Origin: a virus
Taxonomy: Duplodnaviria > Heunggongvirae > Uroviricota > Caudoviricetes
Reading direction: 5' to 3' (one strand)
IMG/VR virus record: IMGVR_UViG_2671180673_000008
Length of the DNA stretch: 12,303 bases
Under the pieces are notes generated by a model, which made no database searches, was not told where the DNA came from, and saw only the letters and a program-made list of their open reading frames with translations. Shown here piece after piece: positions 1 to 8,415 of this stretch (within the stretch, counting starts at the first letter, position 1; each line of letters begins with the position of its first letter). Both the position numbers and the translations under genes were made by a program.

Positions 1-483
1 TTGCGCAAATCGGTCCAGCCGTTCAGCGTCTCTGCTGTCGGTTAGCTCAAAATCAGTGAACTGACAGGTATGAGGATCATATCCCATATGTAGTCGCCAT
101 TCAGCGCTGCCGCCCCCGGGCGCACTGATTGCTGTTCCATCGACAAGACGCAATCTCTTTCCGCTTGTACAACCCGTAACTGCGGCGCGTACAGCAAGTG
201 TTTGTGCGGCAAGTATGCCAAACCAGTCGGCGGCATTCCGCAGCCGCTTCAGGAGAGCCAAGTCAGATAATGTTGCAACGTCATGGAGCTGAGCCCATGC
301 AGTGACTTCACGTAATGACATCCCCCCGGGGCCGTAAGCCAGCCCCAGACGTAGCAGAGTTGCAGCATCACGAATTTCGCGGCGGCGGGTTAGAGCCCCG
401 GCATTACGTGCCGAAGTATCCAGTTCTTCGGGCTTACCAATATGGGCCAGAATTGCTGACCAGTTATCGTGAGAGTAATTCAT
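1..483 (-). CDS. insL: IS186 transposase (InsL-like), N-terminal 161 codons; 3' part outside window
   Basis: Hand translation from ATG at 483..481: MNYSHDNWSAILAHIGKPEELDTSARNAGALTRRREIRDAATLLRLGLAYGPGGMSLREVT..., open to position 1. Absent from the ORF track because it runs off the edge. Confidence 0.75.
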   Translation of the reverse strand, partial: MNYSHDNWSAILAHIGKPEELDTSARNAGALTRRREIRDAATLLRLGLAYGPGGMSLREVTAWAQLHDVATLSDLALLKRLRNAADWFGILAAQTLAVRAAVTGCTSGKRLRLVDGTAISAPGGGSAEWRLHMGYDPHTCQFTDFELTDSRDAERLDRFAQ

Positions 484-538
484 CGGCACGTTAAATCATA
501 TCAGGCGTAATACCACAACCCTTAAGTTAGCGCTTATG
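1..538 (-). mobile_element. IS186-like (IS4 family) insertion sequence, partial; continues beyond the left window edge
   Basis: Minus-strand reading of 484..538 gives CATAAGCGCTAACTTAAGGGTTGTGG..., which I recognise as the IS186 terminal inverted repeat, followed by the transposase start at 483. Element boundary placed at 538/539. From memory, not searched. Confidence 0.75.
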
Positions 539-574
539 GGATTTGCTCCCCGCCTTTTTTATGGATGAAATAGG

Positions 575-1072
575 ATGAACCCAATAACACTACAAATCAT
601 CAGCAATGCTATTGTTCTGCTTGGCGTTTTGGTTGCCATTGGAACCATTATCTACAATGTGCGTACCGCAAAAAAAACTCAAACGGCCAACTTTCTTTTT
701 GAGAGTCGGCAAGATATGCAATATATAGAGTCATTGCATACCCTGAAACAAGTGCATCGTTCAGGCAAATCATTTCGTTCTTATGTTTTTCCTTGTGATG
801 GTTGCATAATAACAGATGAAGAAATGGCCGAGCGTCGAAAATTTCAATATATTTTAAATTTTTACGAGCGAGTTGCTGTAAGTATTCGTGAAGGTATTTA
901 TGATGAAAAAATGATAAAAAGAACATCTTACACAACAGTTGTAGAGACATATGATATTGCCGAGCCATTAATTAAAGCAATCAGAGAAAGCATTAATTCG
1001 GATACTACATATCAAGAATTCGAATGGTTAGTAAGAAGATGGAAAGCTAATCCTTTACGGAAAAACAAATAA
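575..1072 (+). CDS. hypothetical protein, 165 aa, one N-terminal transmembrane helix plus a ~130-aa soluble domain; first gene of AT-rich cargo cassette
   Basis: ATG at 575, weak SD (GGA ~9 nt upstream). N-terminal hydrophobic stretch ITLQIISNAIVLLGVLVAIGTIIY. Markedly AT-rich compared with the gpA region. No family recognised. Confidence 0.6.
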   Translation: MNPITLQIISNAIVLLGVLVAIGTIIYNVRTAKKTQTANFLFESRQDMQYIESLHTLKQVHRSGKSFRSYVFPCDGCIITDEEMAERRKFQYILNFYERVAVSIREGIYDEKMIKRTSYTTVVETYDIAEPLIKAIRESINSDTTYQEFEWLVRRWKANPLRKNK

Positions 1073-1111
1073 TGTTTTACCCTTTAATTTACAAGTAACA
1101 CAGGGGGAAGT

Positions 1112-1954
1112 GTGACACAGAATCCGTTTTCATTTTATGACTTTTTGGGCTATCTAATTCCAGGTGGGTTATTCCTGTTTATCCTTTTTTTGTTTTCTAT
1201 TGAAATTAACCCTGTTTATATAGAAGGTATTCTTAACCATATCCTGAAATATAAAGAAATAATAAGTGTATTTATATATGTGGTATTAATCGTTCTATCA
1301 TATATTTCAGGTCACTTCATATCTATTCTATCATCCTGTTTAATTGAAAAATACATGAACAGTAAACTTGGGTATCCTTCAATTTATCTGTTTTCTAAAA
1401 GAAGCTCCCTGAAAATAAAACGACATAATACTAAGTTCAGTATAGTTAATTTTATTCGTGGAGTTTTTTTATTTCCTGTATCAGCTTTTGATAAAGCAGA
1501 ACATCATAAAACCACACTGCATTCTATACTTATTAAAGTCTTTTGGCCGCAAATACGAGATGGTTATATAAATGTTTTTTCTGTATCTACGCTATATCGA
1601 CGTAAGGGCTTGAGGGGCGATCTTTTTCGCCTTGCTTATCATTATGTGTATGAACATTCTAAAAATCATCAGGTGAAAATGCAAAACTATGTTGCTTTGT
1701 ATGGTTTTTGTAGAAACATTACATTTGTTTTTCTCGCTTCAGTCTGGTTGCTTATGTTCCTGCTCCTTCTATCCTTTTTAATAGATATAAATATCAGACT
1801 GTTACCTTTTTGTTTTCTTCTCTTGTTTTGTATTGCTGCATCCCGAGTATTTTATTATGGTTTTGTTAAGTATTATCGCCGCTATTCTCTTGAGGTTTTA
1901 ATGGCATTTGCGGTACTTCAGCACGATAAAAAAACTTCGGCAATTTCATCATGA
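1112..1954 (+). CDS. hypothetical polytopic membrane protein, 280 aa, about 4-5 predicted TM helices; second gene of cargo cassette
   Basis: GTG start at 1112 preceded by GGGGG 5 nt upstream. Several long hydrophobic segments (e.g. LGYLIPGGLFLFILFLFSI, ITFVFLASVWLLMFLLLLSFLI). Very AT-rich. 40-nt gap from upstream gene suggests an operon. Confidence 0.55.
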   Translation: MTQNPFSFYDFLGYLIPGGLFLFILFLFSIEINPVYIEGILNHILKYKEIISVFIYVVLIVLSYISGHFISILSSCLIEKYMNSKLGYPSIYLFSKRSSLKIKRHNTKFSIVNFIRGVFLFPVSAFDKAEHHKTTLHSILIKVFWPQIRDGYINVFSVSTLYRRKGLRGDLFRLAYHYVYEHSKNHQVKMQNYVALYGFCRNITFVFLASVWLLMFLLLLSFLIDINIRLLPFCFLLLFCIAASRVFYYGFVKYYRRYSLEVLMAFAVLQHDKKTSAISS

Positions 1955-1965
1955 TTTGAAACATT

Positions 1966-1988
1966 GGCACCCTGTTAGCAAGGGTGCC
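1966..1988. terminator. perfect 8-bp stem / 7-nt loop hairpin between convergent transcription units; putative bidirectional terminator
   Basis: GGCACCCT gttagca AGGGTGCC, arms exact reverse complements. Sits in the 83-bp gap between the stop of the 280-aa gene (1954) and the stop of parR (2038). No strong U-tract on either side. Confidence 0.5.
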
Positions 1989-2037
1989 AGAATGATGTGT
2001 TGGTCTGTATTTTATTAGTTCACATACAATTATCAGA

Positions 2038-2352
2038 TTATTCTGGGAATAAGGTCTGAATATTCTTTTTTATTTTATAAAAATTGCATTCAACTCCGCT
2101 AGGCTGATTATCCTGGTATGTTTCCTTGATGCTAACGGTATTGAAGGGGAGGTTGTCCTCTGGCCATTCGGCCATCCAGTAGGCAAATGCTGGGTTGCGC
2201 TTTATGAGCGCTAGCCCAGCCAGAAAGGCCGCGCGTTGCGCGCGGCTGCGTTCGGAGGCTGGCAGGCTATCGAGGTAATTGCACGCCTCCTGTTCACTCT
2301 TGACGGCGGCGGGCTTCAGATAGAAACTTATCCGTCTGGTTGGTGTCGTCAT
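2038..2352 (-). CDS. parR: ParR-like centromere-binding adaptor (plasmid R1 ParR/StbB family), 104 aa
   Basis: From internal ATG at 2352: MTTPTRRISFYLKPAAV...LDSLPASERSRAQRAAFLAGLALI resembles R1 ParR (...TIAFKLNPDV...LDSIPQGERSRLNRAALTAGLALY) as I remember it. AAGGAG 8 nt upstream. Starts 4 nt after parM stop. The 149-aa track ORF (2038..2487) overlaps parM and is taken as an over-extension. Confidence 0.7.
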   Translation of the reverse strand: MTTPTRRISFYLKPAAVKSEQEACNYLDSLPASERSRAQRAAFLAGLALIKRNPAFAYWMAEWPEDNLPFNTVSIKETYQDNQPSGVECNFYKIKKNIQTLFPE

Positions 2353-2356
2353 TGGT

Positions 2357-3316
2357 TTACTCCTTGTCCATTGCGTACAGCCCATTAACCAGAGCAAACT
2401 GTGGCACCCCGTCCGCGATGAAAGTCGCATTAACTCCGCAGACTTCGCGGATAGCGGGTGCCACAATCTCCGCCCCTCCACCGACAACCATCACCCGCCC
2501 GTAACCCGAAAAAACCGCCAGCGCGCGGATCACGCGTTGTTTCAGTGTTTCTTCCTTTTCACGAATAACCGCCATCAGGCTGGCGTAATGCGCGTCATTG
2601 TGGATGTGCTGGCGCAGCCAGGCTTCATCATGGCGATGTTCGATAATGGTATTGGCGATGTGGTGACTGGTGCGCATACCGTTAGTGGCCATCACCGACA
2701 GTACGGCATCGGCCATCAGGGAAACGCCTACGTGTGGATCGCAAAACACCTGGCTGATACCTGCCAGTTGCCCTTGAACCTTTGCCACATCCAGCGTGGT
2801 TCCGCCTAAATCCACAATCAGCAGGGATTCAAACGGACTCATGTCAGCCAGTGCTTTAAAGCCAGCCGGAATGGATTCAGGCATAACCCGCACGTTACGG
2901 ATAGTGAATGCTTCGCCGTTCTGGTATTCCACCGGGCGCATAACGTTCGCTTTTTTGCGGTTGATGTTGGCCATGTCCGGCTGTGCGTTTGTGTCGAAAT
3001 ACTCGCTCAGTGGCAGGGTGACAACCACATCCACCTCCTGTGGCGTGATGCCTGATTTGACCAGCGCGTGATGAATGGCGATTACATTCACATCGCTGTA
3101 CTGGTATTGCGTGTCGGTCGTCTGGACAAAGCGATCGCTAACCGGATCAAAACCATAGCGCACGCCATCAAGCATGTAGTTCGCGGGCTGCATGCCACCG
3201 AACGGCGCAGACCATTCCGACTTGAAGCTGTTCGGGCTGATGGCGTTGCGGCGTTCGCCATTCTCAGTCCATGCCAGCTTGATGTTGGTGGAGCCGTCGT
3301 CGATACAAATTTTCAT
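2357..3316 (-). CDS. parM: ParM/StbA-like actin-fold partition ATPase, 319 aa
   Basis: N-terminus MKICIDDGSTNIKLAW...ISPNSFKSEW...YSDVNVIAIHHAL closely matches R1 ParM (MLVFIDDGSTNIKLQW...ISPNSFKREW...YSDVNVVAVHHAL) from memory. AAGGA RBS about 9 nt upstream of ATG at 3316. Confidence 0.8.
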   Translation of the reverse strand: MKICIDDGSTNIKLAWTENGERRNAISPNSFKSEWSAPFGGMQPANYMLDGVRYGFDPVSDRFVQTTDTQYQYSDVNVIAIHHALVKSGITPQEVDVVVTLPLSEYFDTNAQPDMANINRKKANVMRPVEYQNGEAFTIRNVRVMPESIPAGFKALADMSPFESLLIVDLGGTTLDVAKVQGQLAGISQVFCDPHVGVSLMADAVLSVMATNGMRTSHHIANTIIEHRHDEAWLRQHIHNDAHYASLMAVIREKEETLKQRVIRALAVFSGYGRVMVVGGGAEIVAPAIREVCGVNATFIADGVPQFALVNGLYAMDKE

Positions 3317-3345
3317 GTCGCTTTTCCTTATGTTGATTAATTAAT

Positions 3346-3386
3346 CGTTTACGGGATTCTGAAATCCCGTTTTTGCCTGTTTTGTG
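3346..3386. repeat. hairpin-repeat copy 1, intergenic between gpA and parM; candidate parC-like centromere/operator or + strand terminator
   Basis: cgTTTACGGGATTctgaAATCCCGTTTTTGCCTGTTTTGTg. Contains perfect inverted repeat ACGGGATT/AATCCCGT followed by a T-rich tract on the + strand. Confidence 0.6.
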
Positions 3387-3392
3387 CGCGCT

Positions 3393-6215
3393 TCATATAT
3401 CGCTGCGCGTTTTTTGCTCATTTACGGGATTCGTAAGTCCCGTTTCTGTCTGTTTTTTGTTTCCACTGGTCAGGCCACCCCGCAGCAGGTCTGCTTTGCG
3501 GCTGGCGCGTTCAGTGGTTTCACTGATTCTCTGTGCGTGCTCTGCGTCGCGGATGGCGCGCAGCATGTCAGAAAGCACGGTAACGGGTGTTTTCATGGTG
3601 TTCTGGCCCTGCTGAAGTGTGGATGCCAGGCGTGCGGCGGCTTCAGGGTCTGATGCCCCCAGCTGTGCCAGATAGCTGGCGACCGGGTTATGGCGGATCT
3701 CCGTGCTGCTTACGCCATGATTACGGCTCAGGCGCTGCCAGAGCTGCGTGATTCGGCTGTCCGGGCGGGTATCCGGTTTGCGTACAATTTCAAATCCCTG
3801 CGGTGCAATGATGCTGCCGTCAACGTACAGACTGCCGCCCCGTAACAGGTGCTGCATCTGTTGTTCACCGATATGCAGGCCGAGAGATTCAGCAGACTCC
3901 CGCCATTCTTTAGCGAGTAATTCGTGGTTATCAGGCAAAGGCCGCTGCTGTTTGCGGCTCTGTGTCCAGCTCTGCATTTCATCGCTGCTGTTTTTTGCCT
4001 GTTTGTCACGAAGCGAACGCATCAGCGCCCGGCGTTCGTGTCGTTTCAGTGAGCGCATCCATTCGTTCACTTCAACGCCGTCAGGGAGCTGCGGCCACGG
4101 TGCTGGCCGTTCTTCCGGCTGTTCTGTCCCGTTGTTGTCCGTTTCCTGTACACGGGGACAGTTATTGCCACGAGTCCAAGGGGCGGCAGGGCCGCCCTGA
4201 AGGTCAAAACCATTTTCGCGGGCGCTGTCTTCCGCTTCCGGTTTACGTCTTACCAGCTTCCAGTTATCCGGATGCGTGCACACACGGGAGGATTCCCCGA
4301 TGAGTGGTGACCAGATCCCGTAAATCTGTACGCTCTGTTCGCCGTAATCGTTCAGCTCATCTGCGAGGTCGTAGGCGGTGCGAATCAGGTAGTCCTTGCG
4401 TGGAACAAGCACGCCACCCTGTTTTTCAATGTAGGTGGCAAAACACCCGGCATCGGCGGCAGCGAGTACCGCATCCATTGCATCATCTTTCAGCCGTTGC
4501 GGGCCTTCCGGATTGCGTGCCATCTGGCTGGCAAGGCGGCGCAGTTCACGCCACACCTGACGGGAGGGGATGCCAAAGAACTGGAACTGACGGACCCGGT
4601 GAAGGCGCGCCCAGCCGATGGCGCGCTCCACGCTCTCGGCCATTGATTTTCCGGTTTCGTGGTCCACGCGTGGCTTGCCCGTTTTCGGGTCGATGCCATC
4701 CACGGCGCGGCTGTCCAGGTTCTTTCCGATGTAGGTGGCGATGTAGCTGGTTGGCGTGCCTTTTGAGCCGTCGACATACTCCACCTTAAAGCGCGGAGTA
4801 ATATCATTGCCCAGCTCGTGGCGGTCTTCCTGAATGGCAATATCGCGGGTATGGGACACAATGGTGTCGATTTCTTCCGGATGTGCAAAGACCATCATAT
4901 GCCAGTGCACGGTGCCGTCATGATGAGGCTCCACCGTGCGGATGCCATACCAGCGCAGGCCGTCGCGGTTCAGTTTTTTGCGGACCGCCGCAAAAAACGT
5001 GTTAACCAGGTAATCGCTGGAGTCGCGCATTGTGGCCCCGTTCCATTTGGGATTCGGATGACCGTTCTCCGTTGTGGCGTGGTATTTTGACGGGCAGGTG
5101 ACAGTCAGAAACACCGCTTTGTCGCCACGGGCTTCGGCCAGAAGTTCCAGTCCCTTCATGGTGGCCATCATTTCTGCCTTACGGTGAACCGGGTTACTTA
5201 CTCCCGCGTAATACACTGTCTCGAGATCAATCGTGAACCCGTCTTCATTTTCCAGCATGAAACTTTTCAGGAAATCGCGTGTTTTCTCGCGCTGTGCGCG
5301 AAACTCGCTTAACGCGTCCTGGCTCAGATAGGGTGATGTTTTTCTGGAAACCAGACAGGCGGCGCGGAGTTGTTCTTCTCTCCACTCGCAACGTAACAGC
5401 CACAGTTTGCGTTTCCACCATTCCGCACAGGTCAGGCGAAGGATTGCGCCCGGCAGCAGCTCCGTGTCCGGTTCGTTCCTCCGGTCTTTGTCTGTTGTCA
5501 GTGCGTCATAATGTGGAGGCATGGCGTGCAGGTGTAACGCCATGCGGGCCAGCATCTGATACGCCTTCAGGGTTACATCCATGGTCAGCTCGCCATCGGT
5601 CGCGCCAAAGCCATCGCAGAGTTTTTCGAAGGTGCTGCTGAACATCGCCGCCGTCATGGTGGCCAGCGTCTGTATCTGGTGTTTGTTGAGCTGCGGCAGG
5701 TAAAGCAAATCGTCCAGGCGTTCGCGTCCGGCAAGGGAGCGATAACCCGGTGTCAGCCAGCGTCCGTCAGTGCTATCCAGACGTTCGAATATTTTGCGCA
5801 GGGTTCCGCGTGCATAGCGTTCCGCCTGCCAGCTCTTTTTGCCTTTCCGGCGATCGGCTTCCTGTTTTTTGCGCAGGAAGGAGAGGTGGCGAATAAGCGG
5901 ATCGCGCAGATAGGACGGCAGCAGGCGCAGCGAGGCCATGGCTTCATCCACCGCGCCACGTGCCTGTTTTCTGGCGTCTCCTGCCAGTGTGATGGTTTTG
6001 TCCTGTTTTTCCTGTGCGTCCAGGCTTTTATTAATCAGGTTGCCCAGCGGCGTGGCTGAGAACGCCGCATCAGCCATTTCCTGGCGGCGCTCGTTCTCTG
6101 CCCGGTAGGCATCCAGCCAGGAGGAAAGCGCGGATTCAGGAGCGGGGATCCCCGTTCCTTCACGCCCCACTGCGTGGCGCGGTTGTTGCCAGTCCCTGAG
6201 GTACTCTGCCGTCAT
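3393..6215 (-). CDS. rolling-circle replication initiation endonuclease, phage P2 gpA family, 940 aa
   Basis: Conserved blocks recalled from P2 A: LTVTCPSKYH, TVEPHHDGTVHWHMMVF (HUH metal-binding motif) and TSYIATYIGKN (paired catalytic tyrosines). ATG at 6215 lies 6 nt after the stop of the upstream ORF. Confidence 0.85.
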   Translation of the reverse strand: MTAEYLRDWQQPRHAVGREGTGIPAPESALSSWLDAYRAENERRQEMADAAFSATPLGNLINKSLDAQEKQDKTITLAGDARKQARGAVDEAMASLRLLPSYLRDPLIRHLSFLRKKQEADRRKGKKSWQAERYARGTLRKIFERLDSTDGRWLTPGYRSLAGRERLDDLLYLPQLNKHQIQTLATMTAAMFSSTFEKLCDGFGATDGELTMDVTLKAYQMLARMALHLHAMPPHYDALTTDKDRRNEPDTELLPGAILRLTCAEWWKRKLWLLRCEWREEQLRAACLVSRKTSPYLSQDALSEFRAQREKTRDFLKSFMLENEDGFTIDLETVYYAGVSNPVHRKAEMMATMKGLELLAEARGDKAVFLTVTCPSKYHATTENGHPNPKWNGATMRDSSDYLVNTFFAAVRKKLNRDGLRWYGIRTVEPHHDGTVHWHMMVFAHPEEIDTIVSHTRDIAIQEDRHELGNDITPRFKVEYVDGSKGTPTSYIATYIGKNLDSRAVDGIDPKTGKPRVDHETGKSMAESVERAIGWARLHRVRQFQFFGIPSRQVWRELRRLASQMARNPEGPQRLKDDAMDAVLAAADAGCFATYIEKQGGVLVPRKDYLIRTAYDLADELNDYGEQSVQIYGIWSPLIGESSRVCTHPDNWKLVRRKPEAEDSARENGFDLQGGPAAPWTRGNNCPRVQETDNNGTEQPEERPAPWPQLPDGVEVNEWMRSLKRHERRALMRSLRDKQAKNSSDEMQSWTQSRKQQRPLPDNHELLAKEWRESAESLGLHIGEQQMQHLLRGGSLYVDGSIIAPQGFEIVRKPDTRPDSRITQLWQRLSRNHGVSSTEIRHNPVASYLAQLGASDPEAAARLASTLQQGQNTMKTPVTVLSDMLRAIRDAEHAQRISETTERASRKADLLRGGLTSGNKKQTETGLTNPVNEQKTRSDI
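3418..3460. repeat. hairpin-repeat copy 2, inside the last ~22 codons of gpA
   Basis: TTTACGGGATTCGTAAGTCCCGTTTCTGTCTGTTTTTTGT. Imperfect direct repeat of copy 1, about 73 bp away, with inverted repeat ACGGGA/TCCCGT and a T-tract. Confidence 0.6.
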
Positions 6216-6221
6216 AGTGAT

Positions 6222-6587
6222 TTACTTCGTCATGCCATTCAGGGTGTCGCGGCAGACTGTAGCCAGCCGCTGAATTTCCAGCACGGTGTCTTCTGTGTCG
6301 GCATGGCGATGTGTGATGCGGATGCTGTCGGCAATCACATCGACGATTGCAGAGGATGGGCGCTGGTAAATGCCAATAACGGACGGGGTGCCACCTTCAA
6401 TGCGGTAAAGCCTGTAATTTCCCTCGTGGCTGTCAATCATGTAGCGACCATCAATAACAATCTTTCCGTCAGCGAGCTGCGGTACAGGCAGGGATTTCAG
6501 GTACATGTCATAACGATCACGCACGCGAGCGGCAAGATCACGTTCTGTATTGAGCAGGTATTCAAGAAAGTCGTTGGCGAGAATCAT
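6222..6587 (-). CDS. hypothetical early protein, 121 aa, immediately upstream of gpA
   Basis: ATG at 6587 with AGAGGA about 9 nt upstream. Stop 6 nt before gpA start. No family recognised. Confidence 0.6.
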   Translation of the reverse strand: MILANDFLEYLLNTERDLAARVRDRYDMYLKSLPVPQLADGKIVIDGRYMIDSHEGNYRLYRIEGGTPSVIGIYQRPSSAIVDVIADSIRITHRHADTEDTVLEIQRLATVCRDTLNGMTK

Positions 6588-6659
6588 TGCGGCAATCCTC
6601 TTGTTACAGATGTGCGAAGGCCTCCCGCCGCAAGGTGCAGGAAAGGCCCGGAACAGGAA

Positions 6660-6890
6660 TTAATGGAGTTTGTTTTGCTGCTGGATGAGCTGTTGAAGCT
6701 CGTGCAGATCATCCGCCAGATAGCTGAAAACAGAGGCGGAATAAATGTTTGATAGTGCGTGGCTGCGCTCATGCAGCATATTGATGTGCATGATTTGCGC
6801 GACGCGTGATGCGCGGGAAAGTCTGCGGTTGATTTCAGTCTGGATGTGACGACGCTCCGCGATAGCGCGGTGCTGTTTGCGGTTTGCCAT
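6660..6890 (-). CDS. hypothetical small basic protein, 76 aa, possibly DNA-binding
   Basis: ATG at 6890 with GGGG about 9 nt upstream. Arg/Lys-rich N-terminus (RKQHRAIAERRHIQTEINRRLSRASR). First ORF after the structured non-coding island. Confidence 0.5.
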   Translation of the reverse strand: MANRKQHRAIAERRHIQTEINRRLSRASRVAQIMHINMLHERSHALSNIYSASVFSYLADDLHELQQLIQQQNKLH

Positions 6891-7069
6891 GGTGTGGCCC
6901 CTTGTGTAGTAAGTTGTGAAAACTCACCATCCAGAGCTGCGAAACTGTGGGTGGCGAGACGTACGAGGTTCGCAGTACCGGCTACACAAGAACCCGGCCC
7001 GACCGAAGTCGGCCCCGTACGCCCCGCCATAATTCTGACGCGAAAAAAACGTGGCAATACAGTACGCAC

Positions 7070-7090
7070 AAAAAAACCGCTGGCGCGGTT
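7070..7090 (-). terminator. intrinsic terminator on the - strand inside the early gene string
   Basis: Minus-strand reading AACCGC gcca GCGGTT followed by TTTTTTT (+ strand AAAAAAACCGCTGGCGCGGTT). 6-bp GC-rich stem, 4-nt loop, 7-U tract. Confidence 0.6.
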
Positions 7091-7212
7091 GTGCGCTTGT
7101 GTAGTCAGCAGGCTGCGAAACCCGGCACCCGTTTTATGAGGTGCAGCGGAAATGTAACCTGACTGATTGCGGCATGGCAAGCGGTTTTTTTGTGTGTGCA
7201 TGCTCTGGTTTC

Positions 7213-7512
7213 TTACTGGTTCAGAAAAAAATCAAAAACCTTGTCAATACGTTGCAGCAGCTCTTGCTGTATTGCTTCCGGCGTTTCCGGTTCGCCTGGC
7301 ACCTCCAATGTCGCGCAGAAATCAGCGATTTCATGATGGAGCGTCAGGCGAATGGCAGGAGCCGTGGTTCTGGCGTGCTCCAGCTCATTCAGCAGTGCCA
7401 GCACAGCAGACGGCGAGAGCATTGCGCGAAATGCCAGTAATTTTTGAGGCGTTGCCATTCGTTGCAGGGCAAATGCCAGTTCGCGTAGCTTCTGGTGGTT
7501 GATGGTGCTCAT
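7213..7512 (-). CDS. hypothetical early protein, 99 aa
   Basis: ATG at 7512 overlaps the upstream stop as ATGA (translational coupling). Ends just before the non-coding island. Confidence 0.55.
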   Translation of the reverse strand: MSTINHQKLRELAFALQRMATPQKLLAFRAMLSPSAVLALLNELEHARTTAPAIRLTLHHEIADFCATLEVPGEPETPEAIQQELLQRIDKVFDFFLNQ

Positions 7513-7775
7513 GCTCTGGCTTCCTTCAGTAGCTGGTTAAACATGTGAGTAAGTGGATTGCTACACCCGAACGGCATCGGGTTTACGTGGTAAGAAGCCT
7601 GGCCTCCAGTTTTGCGAGCGCGACCACCTGTGCTGCGGTTTGTTCTGATGACTAAGCCGCCGCGCCAAAGTTGGCGTAACTCAGCATTAATGGCTGTGGT
7701 TGGAGTATTCAGTGCTGCGGCGATCTCTCCGCCGCTACACCCCGGATGAGTAGCGATGTAGTCCAGAATGGTCAT
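7509..7775 (-). CDS. hypothetical early protein, 88 aa
   Basis: ATG at 7775 overlaps the upstream stop as ATGA. No family recognised. Confidence 0.5.
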   Translation of the reverse strand: MTILDYIATHPGCSGGEIAAALNTPTTAINAELRQLWRGGLVIRTNRSTGGRARKTGGQASYHVNPMPFGCSNPLTHMFNQLLKEARA

Positions 7776-7975
7776 CTGCGTGGCTCCTGTACCTGTCGGA
7801 TAAGATTCACCCGCGCCACGTTGGTGGCGCAGAAGTAAGTGCCGTCAGTGAGGTAGATGTGGTGTGCATCCTTTTCCGAACGATGTTTGTCGATAGTGGT
7901 AATCAGGCGTTCGTCGACCTCGTATTCGCGCCCTCTGGAGGTAAAGCGAACGACGGGAAAATGCTTAATTGCCAT
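7772..7975 (-). CDS. hypothetical early protein, 67 aa
   Basis: ATG at 7975 with GGGGG RBS. First of three translationally coupled genes. Confidence 0.5.
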   Translation of the reverse strand: MAIKHFPVVRFTSRGREYEVDERLITTIDKHRSEKDAHHIYLTDGTYFCATNVARVNLIRQVQEPRR

Positions 7976-7998
7976 TGCGCCCCCTTTGTCCAGTAACC

Positions 7999-8415
7999 CT
8001 ATGCGTTAAATACGGCACGTTGCGCGTCATCAATGAATACAGCTTGAGAGCGTTCTATCAGGCGGAGATTTGTCAGAAGCTCTGACTCCTTTGTGTGGTA
8101 AGGCGTTATCAGGTATTTGCCGTGCAGTTCGGCAATAATGGTGTATTGCGTCATTATTGCCGAACCAAGAATGTAAATGCGGCGTCCAATGCTGGACGGA
8201 TTCATGGCTGCAACTGTTGACTGTGTTTTAAGAGTGTCGATTTCTTTGCCCTGTTCCTCAATAATTTTGGCTGCGTCAGCGGTGATTTTTGCGATGGTCA
8301 GTGCGTGAAGTGCTGCCATATGTTGGCTACGCTTCACGGCATCTTTAGCCATTTCATCTTCCGCTTCTGATATTTTTTTTAATGTGTTGATAATGCCTTC
8401 TTCTTTTGCGTTCAT
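7999..8415 (-). CDS. hypothetical early protein, 138 aa
   Basis: ATG at 8415 with GGAG 6 nt upstream. Preceded by a ~90-bp AT-rich intergenic region that may hold an internal promoter. Confidence 0.6.
   Translation of the reverse strand: MNAKEEGIINTLKKISEAEDEMAKDAVKRSQHMAALHALTIAKITADAAKIIEEQGKEIDTLKTQSTVAAMNPSSIGRRIYILGSAIMTQYTIIAELHGKYLITPYHTKESELLTNLRLIERSQAVFIDDAQRAVFNA

Follow-up and report, generated by a model that had tools for sequence, protein, structure and literature searches.

IS186 inserts at 5'-GGGG(N6/N7)CCCC-3', a target seldom found in E. coli, which the element can enter in either orientation and of which some copies are struck many times (PMC5009759). Among its hotspots are fimA and menC in mutation-accumulation lines (PMC5009759) and, according to saiSree et al. 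2001 as cited in PMC6925257, the lon promoter in E. coli B. The locus described here lies at the left edge of a 12,303-nucleotide stretch of tailed-phage DNA (hereafter the window; IMG/VR record IMGVR_UViG_2671180673_000008). It resembles the lon, fimA and menC hotspots in the element involved, in a palindromic, GC-flanked target with a 7-bp core, and in insertions that occur in both orientations, probably through repeated independent hits, and that part a promoter from its gene. Where those hotspots involve a chromosomal promoter or coding sequence, the target here is a predicted terminator hairpin within the leader of prophage cargo genes; this prophage hotspot was not found in the literature searched.

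Cargo genes with an anti-phage role, such as old and tin in P2, occupy the gpA-gpQ hotspot of P2-like phages, which adjoins cos and lies between replication gene A and portal gene Q. The cassette downstream of the IS sits at this cos-proximal hotspot in a P88-like (P2-family) prophage, but unlike the P2 cargo it is known from sequence, with a weak Csx27-like PADLOC match only. The very gene arrangement seen here, DUF4760, StbA, Plasmid_stab_B and two hypothetical proteins, is listed with identical protein accessions (WP_001068329 and others) for the P2 gpA-gpQ hotspot in the supplement of Rousset et al. 2022 (PMC9122126), a paper in which we found no test of the DUF4760 cassette. Literature searches by the cassette protein accessions or by DUF4760 returned no relevant paper.

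The leader of the cassette is comparable with the trpL, pheL and hisL attenuators and the tnaC arrest-peptide leader, each with a promoter, a short leader ORF with a strong Shine-Dalgarno sequence and a terminator before the gene. Unlike in these systems, the leader ORF stops ~20 nt ahead of the hairpin, no antiterminator helix was found, and the leader peptide is conserved, ending in DEFDGF-stop, and is not rich in one regulatory amino acid. We put at about 0.85 the probability that the whole locus is explained by an ordinary IS186 insertion in the leader terminator, which displaced the promoter and most likely silenced the cassette.

The IS186 copy and its target site

The relevant features of the window are the following.

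1-538, minus strand: right-hand 538 bp of the 1,339-bp element IS186; the window begins within the element
1-483, minus strand: N-terminal 161 codons of InsL, the IS186 transposase, with the ATG at 483 and the frame open to the window edge
516-538, no strand assigned: 23-bp terminal inverted repeat of IS186 at the transposase-proximal end, the exact reverse complement of CATAAGCGCTAACTTAAGGGTTG
539-549, no strand assigned: right copy of the 11-bp target duplication GGATTTGCTCC, which occurs once only in IS-free EC958
541-560, plus strand: split-terminator remnant, with loop ATTTGCT at 541-547, 3' arm CCCCGCC at 548-554 and T6 at 555-560; the hairpin is intact in EC958
563-568, plus strand: GGATGA, ribosome-binding-like motif of the DUF4760 gene, 6 nt before the ATG
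575-1072, plus strand: DUF4760 gene, 165 aa, first gene of the cassette (Pfam PF15956, E 1.8e-34; phrog_2284)
1112-1954, plus strand: second cassette gene, hydrophobic 280-aa protein (phrog_12528)

Positions 1-538 are the end of an IS186 copy. A preliminary description had called this segment IS186-like, and it aligns with the E. coli K-12 IS186 copy between pdeA and nupC at 537 of 538 positions. The sole mismatch, at position 261, gives V75L in the transposase, one substitution relative to WP_001300563.1 as encoded in OX637964. The full IS186 in OX637964 is identical to the K-12 copy (1339/1339), and the complete copies at the same site are 1,339 bp long and encode WP_001300563.1. Two hallmarks of IS186 were found, namely 23-bp perfect inverted repeats and an element of ~1.34 kb encoding the InsL DDE transposase, with the CATAAGCGCTAACTTAAGGGTTG repeat at both element ends in the loci L001 and L003 and in K-12. 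By BLAST, the IS portion was placed 9,119 times in 2,462 of 5,426 complete E. coli genomes, always at an annotated IS4-like IS421-family transposase; RefSeq likewise names K-12's own IS186 copy an IS4-like element of the IS421 family, and the 161-codon transposase fragment weakly matches the IS4 family profile of NCBIfam. In the window, the transposase gene is oriented away from the cassette. The terminal inverted repeat at 516-538 and the ATG at 575 bear out the earlier placement of the IS terminus at 538, 36 bp (539-574) before the start codon, and no related genome was found to share this junction without an IS.

The pre-insertion sequence, GGCGGGG-ATTTGCT-CCCCGCC-TTTTTT, is supplied by IS-free P88-like (P2-family) prophages such as that of ST131 strain EC958, which reads ...TAATGAGGCGGGGATTTGCTCCCCGCCTTTTTTATGGATGAAATAGGATG across the site. 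It comprises arms GGCGGGG and CCCCGCC, loop ATTTGCT and a following T6. The flank GCTCCCCGCCTTTTTT, in which the preliminary description had seen the 3' half of a GC-rich terminator stem, is the 3' part of this hairpin; the IS-free prophages restore a perfect hairpin with T6, and the earlier suggestion that the IS had entered a terminator thus holds. The intact EC958 hairpin folds at -19.4 kcal/mol, versus -7.6 ± 2.4 for shuffled sequences (z -4.86; 0 of 200 shuffles as stable), shows the 7-10 bp GC-rich stem, 5-7 nt loop and T6 on the transcribed strand expected of an intrinsic terminator, and was detected by a terminator scan of the IS-free locus. We regard it as a strong predicted intrinsic terminator. 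The same scan did not detect the split hairpin in the window, and no terminator fold was found at either IS junction, in the window or in the full IS-bearing loci.

The intact site GGGGATTTGCTCCCC fits the IS186 target GGGG(N6/N7)CCCC, with a 7-bp core; no other match to this motif occurs in the 13.5-kb IS-free locus. The window does not reach the left IS end or the other copy of the duplication, and both were read in genomes with an identical right junction. There the duplication, which the preliminary description had proposed to seek at the other IS end, is indeed present: the 11-bp GGATTTGCTCC directly flanks that end in OX637964, LS4, AST19, E100341, H1827/12 and IMG/VR contigs. In OX637964, which has the window's junction, the left boundary is ...GGCGGGGATTTGCTCC followed by CATAAGCG and the right boundary is CGCTTATG followed by GGATTTGCTCCCCGCC; the junctions are identical in every IS-bearing copy inspected. 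To the left of the window, the window's own genome may carry an IS-mediated deletion or rearrangement.

The event is an ordinary, textbook IS186 insertion at a consensus hotspot that is a terminator loop. A complete IS186 transposed by cut-and-paste into the consensus GGGG(N7)CCCC, a target that comprises both arms and the loop of the predicted intrinsic terminator hairpin, and staggered cleavage generated the 11-bp duplication. The K-12 copy between pdeA and nupC offers a close parallel. There too, the element occupies the loop of a GC-rich terminator hairpin (CCGGGG-AATTAT-CCCCGG followed by T6), and its duplication, like the present one, covers the loop plus two stem bases per side; the BLAST match to this copy runs 29 bp beyond the IS end because of the similar terminator loop. 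At the K-12 site, by contrast, the core measures 6 bp and the duplication 10 bp, and the flanking chromosomal genes are convergent, with no downstream gene uncoupled. Terminator hairpins that are GC-rich and have a loop of 6-7 nt offer IS186 a ready-made target, a pattern followed by two of the cases examined, the present site and the K-12 copy.

The native leader of the DUF4760 genes

Backbone homology among P88-like phages stops ~165 bp upstream of the insertion site, and beyond that point the sequence, including the hairpin, travels with the DUF4760 gene. By protein homology, we collected 12 intact DUF4760 loci from Xenorhabdus, Kluyvera, Enterobacter, Dryocola, Klebsiella, Atlantibacter, Rahnella and Pantoea, and added a Citrobacter phage locus to the leader comparison. 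A promoter-like element, a mini-ORF and a hairpin lie upstream of DUF4760 genes in nine other genera, with the promoter weaker or unclear in some. The order of elements is a promoter-like element, a 5' hairpin, a Shine-Dalgarno sequence, the mini-ORF, ~20 nt, the terminator, (A/C)ATGGATGAAA and the DUF4760 start. This layout is common to all compared loci except that of Pantoea, which has the mini-ORF and the terminator hairpin and is without GGATGA and the AACCUCU pairing described below. The promoter-like element, TTGAC(T/C)-17-TA(A/G)TTT, is clear in E. coli, Citrobacter, Xenorhabdus, Kluyvera, Enterobacter and Dryocola and weaker or unclear in the remaining loci; the native element scores 8/12 to the sigma-70 consensus. 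Straight after the T-run, ATGGATGAAA is kept in most homologous loci, and its GGATGA is the likely ribosome-binding motif of the DUF4760 gene.

The hairpin is conserved as a structure despite changes in its sequence. A hairpin with a U-run occurs in 13 of 13 leaders from other genera or phages, the stems of which show compensatory changes or a wholly different sequence. The stem of Citrobacter phage Shae_phiSM, GGCGGAG/CTCCGCC, is an example of compensatory change, while Pantoea and several IMG/VR loci have unrelated stem sequences in the same place. RNAalifold recovered the terminator helix from the aligned leaders.

The mini-ORF of the E. coli leader has 11 codons and encodes MKKMYDEFDGF. 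All 12 intact DUF4760 loci have an ORF that ends in DE(F/Y)D(G/W)F-stop, measures 9-12 codons from the ATG next to the Shine-Dalgarno sequence, and is preceded by a strong Shine-Dalgarno-like motif. Within the conserved motif, third codon positions vary in six of six codons, first positions in one of six and second positions in one of six. Such variation at third positions, with the first and second nearly constant, indicates selection on the peptide. DUF4760 identity falls to ~38% while the peptide stays MKKFDEFDGF.

Of 13 minimum-free-energy folds, 9 have the mini-ORF Shine-Dalgarno sequence paired with AACCUCU, which lies in the ~20 nt that follow the mini-ORF. In the folds, this helix and that of the terminator are independent of each other, and inspection turned up a single rival pairing for the terminator base, CCUC/GAGG over 3-4 bp. 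A classical attenuator was rejected, as no mutually exclusive antiterminator appeared in the minimum-free-energy folds of the 13 leaders or by RNAalifold. The search of Rfam gave no family for the leader, the match to SorX being sub-threshold (19.3 bits against a gathering score of 46.6). In the 12 homologous loci, a -35/-10 pair is conserved upstream of the mini-ORF, and the stretch from mini-ORF to gene shares no promoter-like sequence; by this comparison, DUF4760 must therefore be transcribed through read-through of the predicted leader terminator. The conserved mini-ORF leader appears to be undescribed.

Short frames with the same ending occur in other phages. When IMG/VR was scanned with degenerate codons for DEFDGF-stop, at least 120 loci came up, DUF4760 leaders among them; they were chosen by the pattern itself and serve as leads, not proof. 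In epsilon15/phiV10-like phages, MHDEFDGF-stop precedes the small terminase gene, with a hairpin five nt after the stop. Elsewhere, MKDEFDGF-stop overlaps the stop of the upstream gene; a terminator-like hairpin comes next, then a large convergent ORF, taken to be the large terminase. Another P2-type cassette has MKKKRMNDEFDGF followed by a stop. In a T4-like contig, MNDEHPDF-stop and MNDEFDGF-stop occur in tandem just upstream of an ORF, whose product, we assume, resembles T4 gp47. At one locus, DEFDGF forms the C-terminal end of a longer ORF. We did not count it as evidence that 91 of the 118 listed hits lie in open frames of at most 25 codons, random frames being short anyway. A literature search for 'DEFDGF' found nothing related.

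It is possible, and we put it forward tentatively, that the hairpin hit by IS186 is one half of an undescribed phage regulatory micro-gene with a peptide that acts in cis or in trans. The unit would consist of a Shine-Dalgarno sequence, an ORF of 8-13 codons ending in DEFDGF-stop and a GC-rich hairpin a few to ~20 nt downstream. It precedes DUF4760 genes in at least 10 enterobacterial genera, and its peptide is more conserved than the protein after it. Acting in cis, the mini-ORF would bring a ribosome to its stop codon, or stall one there, and that ribosome would control how the hairpin folds, and with it read-through or translation of the next gene; in trans, the product would be an acidic decoy peptide ending in Phe.

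Effect of the insertion on the cassette

The DUF4760 gene is annotated at the same coordinates in RefSeq, and its DNA is 100% identical to that of IS-free EC958. We read a hydrophobic N-terminal stretch of its product as one membrane helix; searches of PADLOC, NCBIfam and PDB gave no match to the protein. The 280-aa protein encoded by the second gene is probably located in the membrane and had no match in Pfam, NCBIfam or PDB. We rejected the cassette as a known anti-phage defence system, the only PADLOC result being the weak similarity of the 280-aa protein to Csx27 (E 1.1e-5). What remains of the window covers the early arm of a P2-family prophage, with ParR/ParM-like genes, a 940-aa replication endonuclease, regulators and an integrase, and its nearest sequenced phages are P88-like (Xuanwuvirus, Peduoviridae).

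The insertion parts the promoter-like element and the leader from the gene by 1,339 + 11 bp (1.35 kb), leaving before the ATG at 575 the 3' arm of the hairpin, the T-run and GGATGA. With the hairpin split, neither junction can fold a terminator. Transcripts from the native promoter would enter the IS antisense to the transposase gene and, after ~555 nt, would meet a terminator-like hairpin, GCCGGAAAGGGAGCTCCGGC followed by T6. This hairpin belongs to the IS strand that the native promoter would transcribe and lies outside the window, at positions 5354-5373 of locus L001. Being untranslated, the antisense RNA within the IS may also be exposed to Rho. A standard scan found no outward sigma-70-like promoter in the last ~160 bp of the IS, and a relaxed scan gave 7/12 at best; both relied on simple consensus matches, which would miss weak, activator-dependent or non-sigma-70 promoters. 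With the promoter displaced and no outward promoter picked up by the scans at the IS end, an IS in the window's orientation most likely silences the DUF4760 operon or strongly reduces its expression. The preliminary description had proposed that the native promoter was replaced or displaced: displacement stands, by 1,339 + 11 bp, whereas replacement by a promoter carried on the IS is not supported, the best score being 7/12.

Were any transcription to leave the IS, expression could in principle rise because the terminator is lost. On this alternative, terminator removal combined with outward or read-out transcription, or with a hybrid promoter at the junction, would lift DUF4760 above its IS-free level. 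Insertion sequences of other families create hybrid promoters, and at this site the predicted terminator between the native promoter and the DUF4760 gene is destroyed; in the five genomes with the IS in the opposite orientation, transposase-sense transcription is aimed at the cassette. Activation is nevertheless unlikely: the IS copy in the window has its transposase gene directed away from the cassette, no outward -35/-10 pair in its terminal 160 bp scores better than 7/12, the 36-bp flank has no -10-like hexamer at a usable distance, and the literature searched yielded no report of an outward IS186 promoter. In the opposite orientation, no strong terminator-like site lies near the exit of the IS; transposase-sense read-out could there reach the cassette, and the two orientations may therefore differ in their effect.

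A second alternative, that the insertion is neutral because DUF4760 has its own promoter downstream of the insertion point, draws on the cassette genes being intact and identical to the IS-free copies. We consider it improbable, as the 36 bp from IS to ATG consist of the 3' arm, T6 and the ribosome-binding-like motif with no promoter-like match, and the 12 homologous loci conserve the -35/-10 pair upstream of the mini-ORF and nothing promoter-like after it. Least credible of all, and rejected, is disruption of a phage cos packaging site: the hairpin GAGGCGGGGA shares a 10-nt identity with the P2 cohesive end GGCGAGGCGGGGAAAGCAC and the gpA-gpQ hotspot is cos-proximal in P2-like phages (PMC9122126), yet the 13.5-kb locus neither contains a P2 cos match within 3 mismatches nor aligns significantly with the P2 cos junction, P88-like backbone homology ends ~165 bp upstream while the hairpin moves with the DUF4760 cassette, and the ends of the linear P88_4B11 record map ~205 bp upstream, in conserved backbone.

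Recurrence and implications

The cassette occurs in 289 complete E. coli genomes, and by junction-specific queries the site is uninterrupted in 280. The IS is present in the window's orientation in 4 of the 289 and in the opposite orientation, at the same site and with the duplication, in 5 of 289, two of these records being one strain, LS4; some of the nine IS-bearing genomes may also share ancestry. Two cassette haplotypes, 9 positions apart, each occur with the IS in both orientations; haplotype-II prophages are remnants that carry the replication gene as a pseudogene. Among IMG/VR contigs, the IS was also seen in a third variant of the leader. As both orientations are found in each of two haplotypes, the simplest reading is that there were probably at least four independent insertions. 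We infer that the site is a mutational hotspot struck repeatedly in both orientations; recurrence alone is no proof of selection. In the window, cassette DNA at 539-2100 is 100% identical to that of IS-free EC958, which argues that the insertion is recent.

An IS186 insertion that displaces the promoter and most likely silences the cassette thus adds one further documented hotspot for this element. Comparison with the IS-free prophages also exposed the native control region of the cassette, with its promoter, 11-codon mini-ORF and terminator, and the conserved mini-ORF leader is the only part of the analysis that might be new. Should the leader prove to be a regulatory micro-gene, IS186 insertions here would be natural knock-outs of a control element that works in cis or in trans. 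IS-bearing and IS-free strains provide natural, isogenic-like pairs for testing the leader and the DUF4760 genes. Judged from their sequences, ~3% of E. coli genomes with this common cassette would have it uncoupled from its promoter, and attempts to infer accessory or defence gene content by presence alone should allow for such uncoupling.

Leader mini-ORF and conserved elements upstream of DUF4760

The IS-free locus of E. coli EC958 (ST131) and the window together place three elements upstream of the DUF4760 gene, the first gene of the cargo cassette:

EC958 locus 5806-5840: three direct repeats TTGTGCA(A/C), AAATTGTGCAAATTTGTGCACTTTTGTGCAG, at the border of backbone and cargo
EC958 locus 5941-5976: mini-ORF MKKMYDEFDGF, with a strong Shine-Dalgarno sequence, located after the cassette promoter and before the terminator
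Window 561-578: five-codon ORF ATGGATGAAATAGGATGA, beginning directly after the T-run (T6) that follows the split terminator stem

The mini-ORF is conserved in 12 of 12 intact DUF4760 loci of other genera, with substitutions of the synonymous type. It is absent from the window because the IS has pushed it past the left edge. Its C-terminal motif, DEFDGF, may be analogous to acidic C-terminal tails that end in phenylalanine, such as the DDDIPF tail of SSB.

Mini-ORFs of the form x-DEFDGF-stop were also observed in unrelated phage contexts, usually with a GC hairpin downstream of them, among the matches listed from IMG/VR (L041-L155), loci that were themselves chosen by this pattern. Examples among those matches are epsilon15-like phages (L045/L048), a P2-type cassette (L059), a T4-like contig (L054), which carries MNDEHPDF-stop and MNDEFDGF-stop in tandem, and L050, where a longer ORF ends in the motif at its C-terminus.

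In Kluyvera, Dryocola, Enterobacter and Klebsiella (L022, L024, L030, L025), the -10 element of the cassette promoter is overlapped by a palindrome, TTACC-N5-GGTAA, which precedes the start of DUF4760 by approximately 150-180 nt; the E. coli version is degenerate. Epsilon15-like phages (L045/L048) have two copies of this palindrome ahead of their small-terminase gene, downstream of the mini-ORF hairpin. It may serve as an operator or form an RNA hairpin. E. coli, Citrobacter, Xenorhabdus, Kluyvera and Dryocola all retain the TTGTGCA(A/C) repeats where the phage backbone ends. The repeats lie just downstream of the mapped ends of a linear P88-like record.

The stop codon of the five-codon ORF overlaps the DUF4760 start codon (ATGA), an arrangement that could be read as a coupled upstream ORF. 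In other genera the nucleotide motif ATGGATGAAA is kept, but the reading frame and product of the ORF are not. The motif is more likely to mark a ribosome-binding region than to reflect a coupled ORF.

IS186 copies and their insertion sites

In K-12 MG1655, the resident IS186 copy between pdeA and nupC likewise interrupts a terminator hairpin within its loop (CCGGGG-AATTAT-CCCCGG-T6), and the duplication there measures 10 bp. GC-rich terminators whose loops span 6-7 nt look like natural targets of IS186. The window's own IS186 copy has a C-to-A difference on the plus strand at position 261, which makes residue 75 of the transposase leucine instead of valine (V75L); the difference was found neither in K-12 nor in any of the four complete genomes that have the window's junction (0/4).

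The haplotype-II cassettes of AST19, E100341 and H1827/12, one of two cassette haplotypes, sit in remnants of prophages, where the annotation marks the replication endonuclease gene as a truncated pseudogene. Despite this, IS186 occurs in these remnants at the same site as in the window and in both orientations.

Cassette cargo, possible partition genes and prophage mosaicism

The second cassette protein (280 aa, window 1112-1954) weakly matches the PADLOC model for Csx27 (E 1.1e-5), a protein that PADLOC links to type VI-B CRISPR-Cas systems; this was its only family match.

Window positions 262-7388 are identical to OX637964, a complete genome sharing the IS junction, and a dense patch of SNPs relative to that genome covers 7389-8053 and beyond. 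No complete genome in the set exceeds 98.7% identity across the whole window. From this patch and this identity, we infer that the window's prophage is a mosaic, absent from the complete-genome set.

In this P2-family prophage, a further pair of genes separates the cargo cassette from the replication gene:

Window 2038-3316, minus strand: ParM (StbA) actin-like segregation protein and its Plasmid_stab_B partner

The pair suggests a plasmid-like partition module within the phage.
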